Shown here: one piece after another, positions 4,852-9,468 of the stretch
Position numbering within the stretch: the first letter of the stretch is position 1
How the letters are laid out: the number at the start of each line of letters is the position of its first letter
IMG/VR virus record: IMGVR_UViG_2703718859_000027
Reading direction: 5' to 3' (one strand)
DNA length: 10,574 bases
DNA from: a virus
Lineage: Duplodnaviria; Heunggongvirae; Uroviricota; Caudoviricetes
Program-made: the position numbers and the translations under genes
Notes under the pieces: generated by a model
The model's input: only the letters and a program-made list of their open reading frames with translations
What the model was told of the DNA's origin: nothing
The model's database searches: none

Positions 4852-5040
4852 TTATCCAGCCGGTGTTTCGTTATTCAGGTACAGCGATACTTTTTTTAAC
4901 GGGAGGCATTCACCAGAAATTTTTTGCTCGTCTCTTGCCTGGAGGCAGGATTCTTTACTGGCATAAATTCCGGTAATCACATTCTGTGATTCACCCGTTA
5001 TAAGAAAAACCGTCATCACCAGTGCAAATGCTGAAGTCAT
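4852..5040 (-). CDS. Small secreted/membrane protein, YdfD-like (Qin prophage lysis-protein family) candidate
   Basis: 62-aa ORF with hydrophobic N-terminus MTSAFALVMTVFLITG (signal-peptide-like). Its ATG (5040..5038) overlaps the dicB stop (ATGA), as for ydfD downstream of dicB in Qin. Family assignment is from memory of YdfD, not alignment. Confidence 0.6.
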   Translation of the reverse strand: MTSAFALVMTVFLITGESQNVITGIYASKESCLQARDEQKISGECLPLKKVSLYLNNETPAG

Positions 5041-5225
5041 TGACGTTCTCCGAAAATACCAAGTTCAAGAAGGGCAATTCTGGAGAGTATGGAATTATCA
5101 TTGAGAAGATAAGGCTCATATTTTCTCATCTTAATGGCATCTTCAGTAAACTCCCGGTTACTGAGCAGAACACCAATATCAAAACACCCTTCAGACGTAT
5201 TAACGTTTGGTAATAACGTTTCCAT
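5037..5225 (-). CDS. dicB: DicB-like cell-division inhibitor (MinC-dependent FtsZ-ring inhibitor of Qin/Kim prophage type)
   Basis: 62-aa ORF METLLPNVNTSEGCFDIGVLLSNREFTEDAIKMRK; N-terminal half closely matches E. coli K-12 DicB (MKTLLPNVNTSEGCFEIGV...FTEDAINKRK, from memory). GAGGA Shine-Dalgarno upstream. Confidence 0.85.
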   Translation of the reverse strand: METLLPNVNTSEGCFDIGVLLSNREFTEDAIKMRKYEPYLLNDNSILSRIALLELGIFGERQ

Positions 5226-5235
5226 TATCGCGTCC

Positions 5236-5793
5236 TCAACAATGAATTTTTAGTAATTGCTCCACAGTCATATTTTTAATTGCGCTCCGGTTTACAAGAG
5301 TCCAGCCTTGTTTCTCCAGATAAAACTGGAAGGTATCCAGGGTGCAGACCATTGCACCATCAGGAACGGTTTCAGTGAATTTGATATTGCCGTGTTCGTC
5401 GAGACGGATAACCAGGGTACGTCCGTCCCCGTGAATCATTTTGTCGGGAGACGGGGCGTTATTCTGGCGCAGTTCTTTCTCCATGCGATCGAACTCAGCG
5501 ATGTAGGCTTCTTTAAATGCAGCGGCTTTTTTGCCGGTGAAGCCCATCACCAGGAAAACGAAGCCGTTTTTGGTGATTTGGTACATAGGGAGTTTGCGCC
5601 CGGTTGAGTCGGTATATTCACTGGGCGAAAAATTTCGCTCAGTGAATTCTGCTGAACAGTCTAGACGTGAAATTTTTGCCAGTACATCTTTGTGTGGTTT
5701 CCGGAAATACTCGGCAACAGCTAAAGAGGATGTAACAGCACGCCCATTGGCGATAGTAATTTCAGGGTGAGAAAGGGCAGGGATAGTAGCCAT
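5236..5793 (-). CDS. Rha-family phage regulatory protein (N-terminal pRha domain plus about 85-aa C-terminal domain)
   Basis: Segment ITIANGRAVTSSLAVAEYFRKPHKDVLAKI...KLPMYQITKNGFVFLVMGFTGKKAAAFKEAYIAEFDRME matches the Rha/pRha domain (memory of PF09669). Start chosen at ATG 5793..5791 (MATIPALSHPE...) because a perfect GGAGG lies 8 nt upstream (5806..5802). The track ORF extends in frame to an ATG at 6087, so a 283-aa alternative exists. Confidence 0.8.
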   Translation of the reverse strand: MATIPALSHPEITIANGRAVTSSLAVAEYFRKPHKDVLAKISRLDCSAEFTERNFSPSEYTDSTGRKLPMYQITKNGFVFLVMGFTGKKAAAFKEAYIAEFDRMEKELRQNNAPSPDKMIHGDGRTLVIRLDEHGNIKFTETVPDGAMVCTLDTFQFYLEKQGWTLVNRSAIKNMTVEQLLKIHC

Positions 5794-5957
5794 GATGGCA
5801 GCCTCCATGATGAATTTCATTAACTCACCACCGGAGGTAGCAATCTCATGGGTGGTGAGACGCACAGGGTTGCTACAACCGGTCATCATGGAACCCGGCC
5901 AGCCTTGCGGCTGCCCTGCACGCCCCACCATAATCTGAATGTGGCTGTGCATTACGC

Positions 5958-5982
5958 ATAAAAAAACCGCCTGAGCGCGGTT
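5958..5982 (-). terminator. Candidate rho-independent terminator (minus strand)
   Basis: Minus-strand RNA reads AACCGC-GCUCAG-GCGGUU followed by UUUUUAU. It lies inside the in-frame upstream extension of the Rha ORF and downstream of dicF. Confidence 0.45.
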
Positions 5983-6202
5983 ATGCGCCATGATGAACAT
6001 CGGGGTAGCAATCCCGGCACCCGCTTTATGAGGTGCAGGTGCACTATAATTCCACCCGTTCTGGTTTTCAATAGCTACATTCAACATTTTCTCTTACCTT
6101 TCATCACCGAAGTGAACTTTGTCGATGCAGTGCCTGGTGCCTCCAGGTGACGTTAACCAGTTAACAATTAACGCCGGAATACAGAAGTATGCCCGTTACG
6201 CC

Positions 6203-6227
6203 CCGTAAAAGACCACTTTACGGTTTT
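6203..6227 (+). terminator. Terminator-like hairpin plus T-run on the plus strand
   Basis: CCGTAAA-agaccac-TTTACGG followed by TTTT on the plus strand (7-bp stem). No plus-strand gene is upstream, so its role is unclear. Confidence 0.3.
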
Positions 6228-6278
6228 AACTGTTCCGCGTGCGCTTAGCCGCATTCACCGCATCACAAAATTCACTTT

Positions 6279-6331
6279 AAAAAGGGTGGCAGAGCAGTCA
6301 CGGAGTAGAACTGATGCCACCAAAGACTACA
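6279..6331 (-). ncRNA. dicF: DicF-like sRNA (ftsZ-targeting antisense sRNA of Qin-type prophages); 5' seed differs from K-12 DicF
   Basis: Minus-strand sequence CUUUGGUGGCAUCAGUUCUACUCCGUGACUGCUCUGCCACCCUUUUU matches the 3' two-thirds of K-12 DicF (…GUUUGGCGGUAUCAGUUUUACUCCGUGACUGCUCUGCCGCCC, from memory), including the terminal hairpin GGUGGCA…UGCCACC plus U-run. Sits upstream of dicB as in Qin. The 5' boundary is approximate. Confidence 0.8.
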
Positions 6332-6799
6332 CATGGGTATTGTGGCGGGGCTGTCACTTAAGCGTATGGTCAACCTGACAACCCGGTGCATTTTCTGGAG
6401 CAATGGAGGAAACCCCAGCCATACTTACCGCCGCGCCATTTCGCGGATTGCCACAACCGGAAGCGCACGGTCGAAGAAATCTAACGACAAGCCTTCTAAG
6501 GGAAAGAGCTTCGCCGTACGCTTTCGCGTTGTGTGCCTGCTTTTAACCACGTCAGGCGAGGTGGTTTCCGTCGTTCCCCAACGACAGGAAATCTGTATAA
6601 TCTGGATATCCCCAACAACAGGAAGGTGTTTTATATGGTGGTTCAAAAGAATTGTTCAGGTACTGGTAAGCCTGCGGACAGGGCGGACATTCCGAATACC
6701 AGGAAACATATACCTGAGAAAAACATACGACCAAAACCATCTCCAGCTCCTTCAGAGGAGAGGGGGAACAGCAACAATCAAGCAAGCAGGTGATGATAT

Positions 6800-7246
6800 A
6801 TGGACCGGGATGATATTCTTGACAGGGTTTTATATGGCTATTTTCTTGAACAACTATTCTCTGTAGCGACTGGTCGTCTCGATAAACTTCTCTCAGTGGT
6901 GAGTATTATCCTCGGTTCATCTGTCATTGGTGGATTTATTCCTGAAGTTTCTGGAGTTCTCATTGTTGTGATAGCAACCGTTCAAACGATTTACGGATTC
7001 GGACAAAAGTCAGGTAACGCAATGAGAAAATCCGCAGAATATCTGCAGCTTTATGATGATGCAGAAAAATATTCCGATTCGGAATTGAAAATTCAGTTAA
7101 AGCTTCTGGAAAAAACAGATGATAATATTTGGTCGTCGCTTAAAGATATCGCAATCTTAAAAACCCGGATCAAAATAGGAATCTCCGTAGAACAACAAGA
7201 GAAACTGTCTGCAAAATCCAAATTGATGCGATTCCTTTGTGGTTAG
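6800..7246 (+). CDS. Small two-transmembrane-helix membrane protein of unknown function; candidate superinfection-exclusion / abortive-infection effector (SieB-like position, SLATT-like architecture)
   Basis: 148-aa ORF in an AT-rich segment, with AGGTGA Shine-Dalgarno 6 nt before the ATG at 6800. Two hydrophobic helices (LLSVVSIILGSSVIGGF and GVLIVVIATVQTIYGF) followed by a charged helical tail. Transcribed opposite to the surrounding early-left operon. Confidence 0.7.
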   Translation: MDRDDILDRVLYGYFLEQLFSVATGRLDKLLSVVSIILGSSVIGGFIPEVSGVLIVVIATVQTIYGFGQKSGNAMRKSAEYLQLYDDAEKYSDSELKIQLKLLEKTDDNIWSSLKDIAILKTRIKIGISVEQQEKLSAKSKLMRFLCG

Positions 7247-7344
7247 GAATACCCAGATTGTTAAAGATCATGCCGGATGCTTACCCGTGTCCGGCGAACG
7301 TATTCCACTTCGCCTGTGGAGAACTCTTTAATTACTAACCTTCA

Positions 7345-7497
7345 TCAGTCAGAGTTTCTTGCTAACCAGCGACGCGCGCCAGCTGCGGTTTTAAACGTTT
7401 TGCTTCTGGTATACGTCATCGCGGTAAACGTGCCGTCCTGGTTGGGAAACACGCCGCATACCAGAGATTCGTTGTTGCCAAGATTGAGCGTATCCAT
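7345..7497 (-). CDS. Small early-operon protein (50 aa), possibly YdfB-like (Qin prophage small protein)
   Basis: ATG at 7497..7495 with GAGG 5 nt upstream. Translation MDTLNLGNNESLVCGVFPNQDGTFTAMTYTRSKTFKTAAGARRWLARNSD, stop TGA at 7347..7345. Below the 60-aa cutoff of the supplied track. First gene downstream of the PL-like promoter; the family call is from uncertain memory. Confidence 0.5.
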   Translation of the reverse strand: MDTLNLGNNESLVCGVFPNQDGTFTAMTYTRSKTFKTAAGARRWLARNSD

Positions 7498-7675
7498 GTT
7501 GACCTCATTTACCCTTAACGCCGGGTCGCGGAACTAAAAACCTGCTGCGCTGTTATACAAAGTATTCCCGCCGTCATGTTCATACGCCTCGGGCTGGCTA
7601 CTTAACCCCTGACCACTGCCGGGTAACTCGAAGTATTGCCTGGCGTTCTGTGGGGCGGAGTGGGTTGGTGAGTGC

Positions 7676-7705
7676 AATCTACAATTAAAAACTGTTTTGT
7701 GTCAA
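7676..7705 (-). promoter_or_regulatory. Candidate sigma70 early-left (PL-like / P-dicB-like) promoter: -35 TTGACA, 18-bp spacer, -10 TAGATT
   Basis: On the minus strand TTGACA (7705..7700) and TAGATT (7681..7676); both lie within or abut the 41-bp palindromic operator, the geometry expected for repressor control. Confidence 0.5.
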
Positions 7706-7720
7706 CAGTTTTTAATTGTA
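7680..7720. promoter_or_regulatory. Perfect 41-bp palindrome (17-bp arms TACAATTAAAAACTGTT, 7-bp spacer); candidate repressor operator (OL / Ob-like)
   Basis: Arms 7680-7696 and 7704-7720 are exact reverse complements. The half-site ACAAT(T/A)AAAAACTGT recurs in the repressor/cro intergenic region (8715-8753). Confidence 0.6.
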
Positions 7721-7729
7721 CCCTTAAGC

Positions 7730-7752
7730 AAAAAAATCCCTCGAAAGAGGGA
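7730..7752 (-). terminator. Rho-independent terminator ending the repressor-antitoxin-toxin operon
   Basis: Minus-strand RNA reads UCCCUC-UUUC-GAGGGA followed by UUUUUUU, 19 nt downstream of the ParE-like stop codon. Confidence 0.6.
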
Positions 7753-7770
7753 GTATGAAAATAGTTCAGC

Positions 7771-8058
7771 TCAGATAGAGAAGGGAAATTGTCGGCGAGC
7801 ATGTGTCACGCTTACAATCTCAATGCTTGAAGCAGCTACTCTGTACAGGATTATGTAGTTAGGGTGGGTCACTATCTCTCTCAACCCAGAAACCCGTTCG
7901 CTTGGTGGATATAGGTACGGATGCTCAGATAGAGGTAATACCGATGTTTCAATACGTATTTTAAGTCTACGCGCTGCCGGTGGGTTCTCCTTGGCGATGT
8001 AAGTTATGATCTGACGCAAATCATCGCGAGCAGATGGTAGCCATAAAATGGGCAACAT
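7771..8058 (-). CDS. parE: ParE/RelE-superfamily toxin (ParE2-like) of a three-component prophage toxin-antitoxin module
   Basis: 95-aa ORF MLPILWLPSARDDLRQIITYIAKENPPAARRL...YIILYRVAASSIEIVSVTHARR with the ParE/RelE pattern. Its start overlaps the antitoxin stop (ATGA at 8058). Confidence 0.88.
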   Translation of the reverse strand: MLPILWLPSARDDLRQIITYIAKENPPAARRLKIRIETSVLPLSEHPYLYPPSERVSGLREIVTHPNYIILYRVAASSIEIVSVTHARRQFPFSI

Positions 8059-8249
8059 TACTCGCTCCTGTTAGTTACAGCAATTTGAGCAATAAGATTT
8101 TCCATTTCAGCTATTACCTCGTCATGTGGAATTGCGGGGCGAGGGTCTGCAAGGCTTGACGCTACTTTAGCGCGCAACCATTCGTTGTAACTGTTTTCTT
8201 GTTCGATAGTTTCGAATTCTGAAACTATCGGAGAAAGGGCTGTACTCAT
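8058..8249 (-). CDS. paaA2: PaaA2-like antitoxin (small, intrinsically disordered ParE antitoxin)
   Basis: 63-aa ORF MSTALSPIVSEFETIEQENSYNEWLRAKVASSLADPRPAIPHDEV..., matching my memory of E. coli O157 PaaA2. Immediately upstream of and coupled to the ParE-like gene. Confidence 0.82.
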   Translation of the reverse strand: MSTALSPIVSEFETIEQENSYNEWLRAKVASSLADPRPAIPHDEVIAEMENLIAQIAVTNRSE

Positions 8250-8276: not shown

Positions 8277-8678
8277 TCACGCCCGGCGGCTTTTTTGTGC
8301 CGCCAGCCACCGGGCAATGGTTTCTTCCATTGATTTTTTTTTGTCTTTGATTTCTTGAAGCATTTTTTCTTGGTCCTCCTCAGGGAACGCACTAAAAGCC
8401 TGGAGTAATTCGCGTTGGCGAGGACCAATTTTCATCGTGTTAGGGGTGAACATTTGCTCCCCCTCTTCAGGAGGCAATAAAAACCAATGCAACGGATGCC
8501 CTGTAACCTCAACCAGTTTATCCAAACTTGAGGCTTTAGGTGTAGCCTTACCGCTGACCCATTGTTGAACAGTTTGTTGTGTCACACCAATTCTACGGGC
8601 CAGCTCAGCCTGGCTCCATCCAGTTTCCTGAAGAAGCTTGCTGATTCTGTACATCGATACTTCTAGGGCGCTCATCAT
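8277..8678 (-). CDS. paaR2: CI-like prophage repressor, HTH XRE family (PaaR2/RacR-like), no S24 peptidase domain
   Basis: 133-aa ORF with helix-turn-helix LLQETGWSQAELARRIGVTQQTVQQWVSG. Divergent from the cro-like ydaS and heads the antitoxin-toxin operon. Start is ambiguous between the ATG at 8678 (possibly leaderless; TAAAAT lies 7-12 nt upstream) and 8654. Confidence 0.85.
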   Translation of the reverse strand: MMSALEVSMYRISKLLQETGWSQAELARRIGVTQQTVQQWVSGKATPKASSLDKLVEVTGHPLHWFLLPPEEGEQMFTPNTMKIGPRQRELLQAFSAFPEEDQEKMLQEIKDKKKSMEETIARWLAAQKSRRA

Positions 8679-8714
8679 TATTCAATTTTACAGGTAAATA
8701 CTGTTAAAAGCATC

Positions 8715-8753
8715 ACAATAAAAAACTGTTGATCGCGTACAGTTTTTTATTGT
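8715..8753. promoter_or_regulatory. OR-like operator palindrome (ACAATAAAAAACTGT - 9 bp - ACAGTTTTTTATTGT) in the divergent repressor / cro-like intergenic region
   Basis: 15-bp arms 8715-8729 and 8739-8753 are exact reverse complements, and the half-site is nearly identical to the 7680-7720 palindrome. A second, weaker dyad TTTTACAG-N7-CTGTTAAAA is at 8690-8710. TATAGT (8764-8769) is a candidate -10 for ydaS. Confidence 0.6.
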
Positions 8754-8786
8754 AGCCTTTGCCTATAGTTTTTAGAGGAGGGCAAA

Positions 8787-9059
8787 ATGCTAGATAGCAC
8801 TCGCAAAAAAATTAGGCAGAAATACACTCAGGCTGAAATAGGTCGTTATATGGGGGTCGCTCAACAGACAGTTTGGCAATGGTTTAGCTTTGGCGTTCCC
8901 CCAAAGCAGGTAATTCCGCTATGTCAGCTAATGAAGTGGGAGGTTACCCCGCATGAAATTCGCCCAGACATTTACCCTAATCCGACCGACGGTTTACCTG
9001 TCGAGTGTCAGGCTAACACACAACCAGAGACGGGGGTGATTCATGAAAATCAAGCATGA
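8787..9059 (+). CDS. ydaS: YdaS-family Cro-like HTH regulator
   Basis: 90-aa ORF with GAGGAGGG Shine-Dalgarno upstream. HTH YTQAEIGRYMGVAQQTVWQW and the C-terminal motif EVTPHEIRPDIYP are typical of YdaS/Cro-like proteins (memory of Rac YdaS). Divergent from the repressor. Confidence 0.82.
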   Translation: MLDSTRKKIRQKYTQAEIGRYMGVAQQTVWQWFSFGVPPKQVIPLCQLMKWEVTPHEIRPDIYPNPTDGLPVECQANTQPETGVIHENQA

Positions 9060-9468
9060 ACACATCCGTATGGCGATGAATGCCTGGGCATATCCTGATG
9101 GTGAGAAAGTTCCCGCAGCTGAAATAGCCCGGACTTATTTCGAGCTGGGGATGACGTTCCCGGAACTGTACGACGACAGCCATCCGGAAGCCCTGGCTCG
9201 TAATACCCAGAAAATTTTCCGCTGGGTGGAGAAGGACACGTCTGATGCTGTTGAAAAAATTCAGGCGCTGTTACCGGCGATCGAAAAGGCGATGCCGCCT
9301 TTGCTGGTGGCCCGTATGCGCAGTCACAGTTCTGAATATTACCGGGAGATCGTCGAACGACGGGATCGGCTGGTGAAAGATGTGGATGATTTTGTCGCTG
9401 TAGCGATCGCCTGGGGCACCCTGACTAACAGTGGTGGTCAGCCTGGTAATGCTGTTGTTGTGCATTGA
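9043..9468 (+). CDS. ydaT: YdaT-family protein (CII-like regulator of Rac/CP-933P-type immunity regions)
   Basis: 141-aa ORF beginning MKIKHEHI (as Rac YdaT, from memory) and ending ...VVVH. Overlaps the ydaS 3' end by 17 nt, with GGGGGTGA Shine-Dalgarno. Confidence 0.82.
   Translation: MKIKHEHIRMAMNAWAYPDGEKVPAAEIARTYFELGMTFPELYDDSHPEALARNTQKIFRWVEKDTSDAVEKIQALLPAIEKAMPPLLVARMRSHSSEYYREIVERRDRLVKDVDDFVAVAIAWGTLTNSGGQPGNAVVVH

Follow-up and report, generated by a model that had tools for sequence, protein, structure and literature searches.

A palindromic operator region predicted to control the early leftward promoter of a lambdoid prophage with a PaaR-type repressor

Palindromes and a recurring 15-mer at the locus

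The DNA analysed here (IMG/VR virus record IMGVR_UViG_2703718859_000027; 10,574 nucleotides, hereafter the window) makes up the left half of a lambdoid prophage that is integrated at tRNA-Ser beside mtfA. It includes a repressor gene that is followed on the same strand by genes for a PaaA-like antitoxin and a ParE-like toxin, a divergent gene for a Cro-like regulator, and a leftward operon that contains dicF and dicB (Table 1). Our subject is the segment at positions 7676–7720, which lies between the repressor operon and the leftward operon, and which contains a predicted leftward promoter (PL) and its candidate operators (OL).

This segment holds a 41-bp perfect palindrome, made up of 17-nt arms (7680–7696 and 7704–7720) that are 100% complementary and separated by 7 nt. 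A second perfect palindrome, with 15-nt arms (8715–8729 and 8739–8753) and 9 nt between them, is in the region between the repressor and Cro-like genes that would contain the rightward operators (OR). These were the only two found when the window was searched for perfect inverted repeats with arms of at least 10 nt and loops of up to 20 nt. Across 100 first-order Markov simulations, the longest arm had a mean length of 8.7 nt and a maximum of 11 nt. Thus, the 17/17 inverted repeat with a 7-bp spacer that had been described at 7680–7720 in an earlier, sequence-only reading of this DNA is exact and exceeds the longest arm produced by chance.

The arms contain a 15-mer, ACAATWAAAAACTGT, of which the window has four exact copies and one copy with three mismatches (8690–8704), where 0.80 would be expected; five matches were reached in 0/200 shuffles. 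A relaxed pattern, ACAR-N7-YTGT, matched six positions in the window (0.72 expected), five of which are within OL or OR. The remaining match, ACAACTATTCTCTGT at 6850–6864, is far from both and is probably due to chance.

At position 6 of the 15-mer, both OL copies have T and both OR copies have A, such that the members of each pair are exact internally and the pairs differ from one another. Exactness within a pair is not obligatory in relatives. Tetramer geometry, palindrome-templated repair or a recent origin could each be the cause.

The predicted leftward promoter

A promoter scan of the minus strand returned the hexamers TTGACA and TAGATT with an 18-nt spacer, which match the consensus at 10/12 positions. 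The -35 hexamer consists of loop bases plus two arm bases, the -10 hexamer shares 2 nt with an arm, and the spacer corresponds almost exactly to one 15-mer, here named OL1. The other 15-mer, OL2, is on the upstream side of the -35. No third OL site was found with the relaxed pattern 20–31 bp to either side of this pair. The sequence-only reading had placed a leftward TTGACA-18-TAGATT promoter under the palindrome and had directed it toward dicF and dicB. The hexamers and spacer returned by the scan agree with this, and DicF and dicB do lie downstream on the same minus strand.

Transcription from PL is predicted to start near position 7669 on the minus strand. When the window was aligned with prophage CP-933P, the two were near-identical leftward from ACCAACCC (window 7669), with no relationship on its right side. 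In the window and in PL933P, the CP-933P leftward promoter, the -10 hexamers (TAGATT and TAAACT, respectively) occupy the same alignment columns, 6 nt before the shared leader. As these columns and the leader coincide in this way, we conclude that the mosaic breakpoint (7669/7670) is at the predicted PL +1. The predicted PL transcript is shared with CP-933P, and the promoter and operators are immunity-specific.

The palindrome is in the same position as PL933P and its operators in CP-933P, and as dicBp in the K-12 prophage Qin, in each case directly after the repressor gene or operon and before ydfA-dicF-dicB. We consider it highly likely that positions 7676–7720 represent the repressor-controlled PL/OL region of a lambdoid prophage that belongs to the CP-933M/PaaR-type immunity group.

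Candidate operators resembling those of phage 434

Judged from its sequence, each 15-mer is most likely a complete 434-like dimer operator (ACAR-N7-YTGT) and not a half-site, and two operators, 24 bp apart from centre to centre, provide the best reading of the 41-bp palindrome. In relatives (designated by L numbers), arm-to-arm complementarity falls to 14/15 in L072 and L079, 11/15 in L086 OL and 9/15 in L085 OL, and all 20 of the sites that we tabulated retain the ACAR...YTGT ends. The loss of complementarity in L085 and L086, the retention of the ends and the presence of a lone third site at OR all point to the 15-mer as the conserved unit. The OL loop tolerates a 1-nt insertion in relatives. 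Internal dyad scores are 3–7 of 7 for the 15-mers and 3–6 of 7 for the 434 operators, and one L086 15-mer is a perfect palindrome by itself. The sequence-only reading had described the repeated unit as a half-site that is shared with the 8715–8753 palindrome. The sharing is borne out, but its ACAR...YTGT ends indicate that the unit is probably a whole 434-like operator.

The repressor also resembles that of 434. Its closest relatives of solved structure, the top matches in a search of solved structures by sequence, are entries for the 434 repressor N-terminal domain (2r63/1per; E 2.2e-5, 40% identity over 48 aa), and this search returned no structure of PaaR2, the CP-933P repressor, that is related to the window repressor. 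TQQTVQQ in the window repressor aligns with TQQSIEQ in 434, and the equivalents of Q28, Q29 and Q33 are kept. In the 434 complexes, from the structural work of Anderson, Aggarwal, Harrison and Ptashne, Gln28, Gln29 and Gln33 contact the ACAA bases.

All six 434 operators, read from the annotated genome OL657226.1, have the form ACAA/ACAG-N6-TTGT; a search of papers for their sequences gave no match. Like them, the window operators have inward-facing ACAA/ACAG...TTGT/CTGT ends and an A/T-rich centre, and 434 OR3 (ACAGTTTTTCTTGT) and the window site ACAGTTTTTAATTGT differ by one inserted base and one substitution. Both phages also have multiple operators at PL and at the rightward and repressor promoters (PR/PRM), and the spacing in 434 is 21–24 bp at OR and 23–31 bp at OL. 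However, the window sites are 15 bp (ACAR-N7-YTGT) whereas the 434 sites are 14 bp, there are two OL sites in the window and three in 434, and the window repressor lacks the LexA-like S24 C-terminal domain and probably has a leaderless mRNA. The window prophage is therefore not a member of the 434 immunity group.

Consistent with this, the 133-aa repressor matched only helix-turn-helix (HTH) families in Pfam, with no match to Peptidase_S24. As it has no S24 LexA-like C-terminal domain, its induction cannot be by RecA-stimulated autocleavage. The C-terminal domain that it does have is approximately 45 aa and includes the motif ELLQxFxAFPExDQ...ARWLAAQK, which is common to PaaR2 and to DicA, the Qin repressor.

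Predicted rightward operators and promoters

Three 15-mers are present in the 108-bp intergenic region between the repressor and Cro-like genes. Two of them, OR1 and OR2, form the second palindrome. The third is the copy with three mismatches at 8690–8704, which was turned up by a search for the motif across the window, of the kind that the sequence-only reading had proposed. This OR3-like site is kept in close relatives and in L085 and L086, where only a central base varies.

An inverted alignment of the OL and OR regions gave 80% over 41 nt, and PR, which is below the threshold of the promoter scan, was placed putatively as the mirror image of PL. An alternative PR -10, TATAGT (8764–8769), lacks an acceptable -35 and would leave the ribosome-binding site truncated, and TAGCCT was preferred. 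The geometry at the start of the repressor gene is as in paaR2 (GATAAT, 6 nt, ATG), for which a leaderless start has been mapped by 5' RACE (PMC8630535). By analogy, the repressor mRNA is probably leaderless.

Conservation and covariation of the operators

Fifty loci were gathered by homology to the repressor protein, independently of the operators. The invariance counts given here cover those with repressors that are 96–100% identical, which include 18 distinct OR and 23 distinct OL sequences. The OR 15-mers are invariant and the OL 15-mers have one variant each. TTGACA is also invariant in PL, and TAGATT has one variant. High variability is seen in the flanks, in the 6 nt that follow the -10 and in the part of the loop outside the -35. 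These patterns support selective constraint on the 15-mers and on both hexamers.

More distant relatives have different motifs. In L086 (repressor 81% identical), the sites are ACAGTAAATTACTGT and ACAATAATTTACTGT at OR, and ACAGTATTTTATTGT and ACAGTTATTTACTGT at OL. L090–93 (66% identical) have ACACTTTTAAAGTTA at OR, and GCACTTTTAAAGTTA and ACACTTATAAAGTTA at OL, while L094 (50% identical) has AAGAAAATATTGTT and AAGAATTTATTGTT at OR, and AATAAAATACTGTT and AATAAATAATTGTT at OL. Each of these lineages, like CP-933P and Qin, has a motif of its own that matches between its own OL and OR. In the L090 lineage, the recognition helices of the repressor and the Cro-like protein both differ from those in the window, as do the operators. 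As the motif changes at OL and OR together with the repressor lineage, a single specificity appears to act at both promoters. That one repressor would control both the divergent switch and the division-inhibitor operon had been predicted from the window alone, and the shared motif, its covariation and the position of PL933P and dicBp all argue for it.

The PaaA/ParE pair is an optional element of the interval from the repressor gene to OL. When IMG/VR was scanned for the exact pattern, 42 loci were returned, in 34 of which the palindromes are 1034–1037 bp apart. In two others, L018 (7487–8208) and L027, they are separated by 683 bp and PaaA/ParE is missing. The pair is also absent from L094 (2486–3001), and an unrelated 120-aa open reading frame (ORF) takes its place in L086 (2501–3523). 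As OL always follows this variable cargo, it is the repressor/Cro module, and not the toxin-antitoxin pair, to which the operators appear to be tied.

About a dozen loci with repressors that are 97–98% identical gave no downstream match to a leader anchor, CACCAACCCAC (L051, L053, L054, L057–L060, L063–L068 and L038, all viral contigs). Several of these contigs have both palindromes and lack the anchor, so the PL leader appears to differ there, representing another mosaic variant.

Sister systems in CP-933P, Qin and lambda

We took the CP-933P immunity region from an O157:H7 genome via the published primer core. Its gene order is the same as in the window, with the repressor gene, paaA, parE, PL/OL and the ydfA/ydfC-dicB side on the left, and, in the divergent direction, ydaT and the gene for a Cro-like protein. 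Homologues of the window PaaA and ParE are encoded, YdaT is a close homologue, and an operator motif is common to OR and OL in both. The PaaA2-ParE2 complex reportedly contributes to full repression at paaR2-paaA2-parE2. PL933P, with three operators (OL1–3) that are similar to the OR operators, is repressed approximately 100-fold by PaaR2 and by YdaS, both of which footprint the paaR2-ydaS intergenic region, and PaaR2 is octameric in solution (Jurenas 2021, PMC8630535).

The two systems differ in sequence. The CP-933P operators are unrelated to the 15-mers (consensus GTTTAGTAA) and are described as three OL operators plus 18-bp inverted repeats, whereas OL in the window has two 15-mers. The promoter spacer is 16 nt in CP-933P and 18 nt in the window. 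Only residues 37–133 of the window repressor align with PaaR2 (42% identity), and the HTH region does not. No similarity was detectable between the Cro-like proteins of the window and CP-933P.

In Qin, dicBp has the same role, upstream of ydfA-ydfB-ydfC-dicF-dicB. It reads TTGACC-17-TAATCT, and its layout of site, -35, site and -10 is as in the window, with TGTTAGTCATGGCTAA in the spacer and a related site upstream of the -35. A further site, TTGTTAGTCATAACTAACAA (Oc), is between dicC and dicA. Deletion of dicA raises dicBp activity 22-fold (Ragunathan 2023, PMC10448788), and DicA binds Oc in vivo (PMC10448788; Yun et al. 2012, PMC3441716); dicBp, DicA and DicC were described by Bejar et al. 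1988, as cited in PMC10448788. Like the window repressor, DicA is short and non-cleavable and has a related C-terminal domain. However, it is only 28% identical, its recognition helix is different and its operators are of the TGTTAGTCA type. The toxin-antitoxin pair of the window has no counterpart between dicA and dicBp in Qin, where the leader is also shorter. By repressor and operator sequence, the window repressor is not PaaR2, and the prophage is heteroimmune with CP-933P and Qin.

The same logic is seen in lambda, where divergent early promoters are each overlapped by operators of one repressor. Lambda also has a third OR site over the maintenance promoter, a centre-to-centre spacing of approximately 24 bp, and accessory genes with a terminator between the repressor gene and PL (rexAB, compared with paaA-parE in the window). 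In contrast, CI and its 17-bp operators are unrelated in sequence to the repressor and operators of the window, and no N/nut antitermination elements were identified in the window. The OL–OR distance is approximately 1.0 kb in the window and approximately 2.4 kb in lambda, where a CI octamer loops the two regions together.

At 1.154 Mb in an O157:H7 genome, the repressor and OR region recur with 96.1% identity and with the same genes around them, and this locus is very probably of the same immunity type as the window. Another cryptic prophage, CP-933M, has been mentioned as having a homologue of the paaR2 system (PMC8630535). The window system is probably this homologue, and we infer the designation CP-933M/paaR1.

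Alternative explanations

The palindrome might instead be a single long operator, with 15–17-nt arms that are true half-sites for a symmetric tetramer or higher oligomer, which would lead to the same repression of PL. Such an operator would fit the perfect symmetry (15/15 or 17/17) seen at both OL and OR in the window and most close relatives, and the way in which both arms switch together at position 6. The octamers that PaaR2 forms in solution (PMC8630535) are a further point in its favour, as the two repressors have the C-terminal domain in common. However, the complementarity of the arms is not conserved (9/15, 11/15 or 14/15 in the relatives listed above), the loop takes a 1-nt insertion and the 15-mer at 8690–8704 is solitary. 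Moreover, each 15-mer is 434-like in itself, with inward-facing ACAR...YTGT ends and dyad scores in the 434 range, and a 434-type HTH_3 domain reads 4–5 bp per monomer. We therefore consider a single long operator improbable.

Several points do weigh against two 434-like operators under a PaaR-type repressor. A model of two independent operators does not call for the perfect 41-bp symmetry that most close relatives show, and the sites are 15 bp where those of 434 are 14 bp, so the geometry of the 434 dimer cannot transfer unchanged. The CP-933P authors could not define the exact binding sequence of PaaR2 (PMC8630535). As the HTH regions of PaaR2 and the window repressor cannot be aligned, the stoichiometry and hierarchy of binding in CP-933P cannot be copied across. 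The PL spacer, at 18 nt and in some relatives 19 nt, is also long for sigma-70.

It is extremely unlikely that the palindrome acts without any bound protein, either as an RNA hairpin (a terminator, an attenuator, or a stabilizing or processing stem) or as a DNA cruciform. The RNA does fold into a 16–17-bp stem (-30.6 kcal/mol; z = -5.6 relative to shuffles), and the site is just downstream of the repressor-PaaA-ParE operon. However, this fold is trivial for any palindrome, and the stem is A/U-rich and is followed by GAUUGCAC, with no U-run, while a canonical U7 terminator is present 17 nt upstream (7752–7737). In relatives, the arms are fixed without compensatory changes, the OL arms of L085 and L086 are not complementary, and it is precisely the -35 hexamer that is conserved in the loop. 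The motif also recurs at OR between the divergent promoters, and as a single unpaired copy at 8690–8704.

The location of PaaA/ParE between the two palindromes raises the question of whether the sites are bound by the PaaA-ParE complex, in the autoregulation typical of type II toxin-antitoxin systems, and not by the HTH repressor. This idea deserves next to no credence. The 15-mers are present at OL and OR in L018 and L027, which do not have the pair, and operators are found in L086, with its other cargo, and in L094, with none. PaaA and ParE are conserved between the window and CP-933P, but the operators are entirely different. The antitoxin matches only PaaA2 in Pfam, with no match to a DNA-binding family.

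Proposed regulation and significance

In the regulation that we propose, PL would drive the ydfA-DicF-(ant)-dicB-exonuclease operon. A dimer of the 133-aa repressor would sit on each of OL1, within the promoter spacer, and OL2, next to the -35, and would shut RNA polymerase out of PL. The same repressor on 8739–8753, 8715–8729 and 8690–8704 would turn off the rightward promoter for the Cro-like protein and YdaT and would also regulate its own leaderless promoter. The recognition helices of the repressor (GVTQQTVQQW) and the Cro-like protein (GVAQQTVWQW) are nearly identical. On this basis, and by analogy with CP-933P as well as 434 and lambda, the Cro-like protein probably binds the same sites.

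The repressor has its C-terminal domain in common with PaaR2, an octamer, and OL–OR looping over approximately 1 kb is thus plausible. The exact 41-bp symmetry, which differs between OL and OR, together with the PaaR2-like oligomerization domain, could be taken further, to a pre-formed symmetric tetramer on each palindrome, with OL and OR joined in an octamer and a 1-kb loop around the repressor-toxin-antitoxin operon. We regard this arrangement as speculative and rather unlikely. If true, a single looped complex would act as the switch for immunity, for expression of the toxin-antitoxin pair and for the division inhibitors DicF and DicB. A 434-type recognition helix acting on a 15-bp (N7) operator would, if true, represent an unprecedented operator geometry.

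The design of OL/PL and OR/PR/PRM is textbook, with experimental precedent in CP-933P and Qin, and the conceptual gain is small. A full-text search of the searchable literature for the 15-mers returned only an unrelated mammalian primer, and these particular operators appear to be undescribed. From the sequence comparisons, their likeness to 434 operators lengthened by 1 bp and read by a non-cleavable repressor of the PaaR2/DicA type is apparently also undescribed. DicF and DicB influence both cell division and susceptibility to phages, and O157:H7 makes DicF orthologues (PMC10448788). Known operators would provide a handle to derepress or silence this copy among the several dicF/dicB-bearing prophages per strain, and would allow prediction of which prophages share immunity and which do not.

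Distribution

The repressor-plus-OR segment is present in 510/5426 complete Escherichia coli genomes, including O157:H7 and O121 strains. A search of deposited phage genomes returned nothing beyond 70 nt of the conserved leader, and none had this repressor or these operators. A scan for the exact palindrome in one genome per species gave 0 matches; the genome representing E. coli is evidently one without the palindrome.

Gene content of the window

The features of the window are listed in Table 1. PaaA and ParE are encoded on the same strand as the repressor, with a terminator after parE. Further left of dicB are DUF1482, an 812-aa exonuclease and the integrase.

Table 1. Genes and predicted regulatory features in the 10,574-nt window
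Feature	Position	Strand	Remarks
dicB	5037-5225	minus	leftward operon
Rha/Ash ORF	5236-6087	minus	leftward operon; isrK and C4 RNA matches
DicF small RNA	6284-6335	minus	Rfam, 61 bits
ydfA/DUF1391	7345-7497	minus	leftward operon
Leftward operon that PL would serve	5037..7497	minus	ydfA to dicB
Predicted PL start (~7669)	7667..7671	minus	also where the shared leader ACCAACCC... starts; placed by promoter geometry and the CP-933P alignment
PL -10, TAGATT	7681..7676	minus	promoter scan; one variant among 23 distinct sequences
OL1, 15-bp operator ACAATTAAAAACTGT	7681..7695	none	promoter-proximal; fills PL spacer between -35 and -10
PL -35, TTGACA	7705..7700	minus	promoter scan; invariant in relatives, rest of loop variable
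OL2, 15-bp operator ACAGTTTTTAATTGT	7705..7719	none	promoter-distal; just upstream of -35, overlaps its first base
Intrinsic terminator	7752..7737	minus	TCCCTCTTTCGAGGGA then T7; closes repressor-PaaA-ParE operon; similar to lambda t_imm; found upstream of OL in every relative
ParE-like toxin	7771-8058	minus	ParE_toxin match, E 2.6e-17
PaaA-like antitoxin	8058-8249	minus	PaaA2 family match, E 6.6e-21
Repressor	8277..8678	minus	133 aa; 434-like HTH_3 N-terminal and PaaR2/DicA-like C-terminal domain
Putative PRM	8678..8690	minus	-10 TAAAAT (8690..8685), 6 nt, ATG at 8678
OR3-like 15-bp site ACAGGTAAATACTGT	8690..8704	none	over spacer and -10 edge of repressor's own promoter
OR2, 15-bp operator ACAATAAAAAACTGT	8715..8729	none	upstream of PR -35; centre at approximately -44 from repressor start
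Putative PR	8729..8758	plus	TTGATC (8729-8734), 18-nt spacer, TAGCCT (8753-8758); mirror image of PL
OR1, 15-bp operator ACAGTTTTTTATTGT	8739..8753	none	in PR spacer; invariant in 18 distinct sequences
Cro-like regulator, YdaS family	8787..9059	plus	90 aa; recognition helix GVAQQTVWQW
YdaT (CII analogue)	9043..9468	plus	close homologue of CP-933P YdaT (PDB 8bt1, crystallised)

Within the Rha/Ash ORF, positions 5848–6036 (minus strand) match the Rfam C4 antisense RNA (77.9 bits) and isrK (64.7 bits). The same DNA lies within the 5' third of this 283-aa ORF and gives its match to Pfam Phage_ASH (residues 14–109, E 1.8e-18). As this stretch matches two RNA genes and a protein domain, the Rha/antirepressor-like gene may have been annotated with a wrong start. 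In the closest RefSeq genome, no coding sequence is annotated in the approximately 1.25 kb (6088–7344) that separates the Rha-family gene from ydfA. This segment contains DicF and two unannotated plus-strand ORFs of 177 aa (6333–6866) and 148 aa (6800–7246).

On the other side of the switch, GTGATTCATGAAAATCAA at the ydaS/ydaT junction (9036–9053) is one base off the YdaT operator TTGATT-N6-AATCAA, a match that is not statistically significant alone. In CP-933P, TTGATT-N6-AATCAA was footprinted with YdaT at the same position (PMC9986795). An exact 12-nt direct repeat, GCTCAGATAGAG, is present at the end of the ParE-like gene (7769–7780) and inside it (7923–7934), and with two copies could be due to chance.

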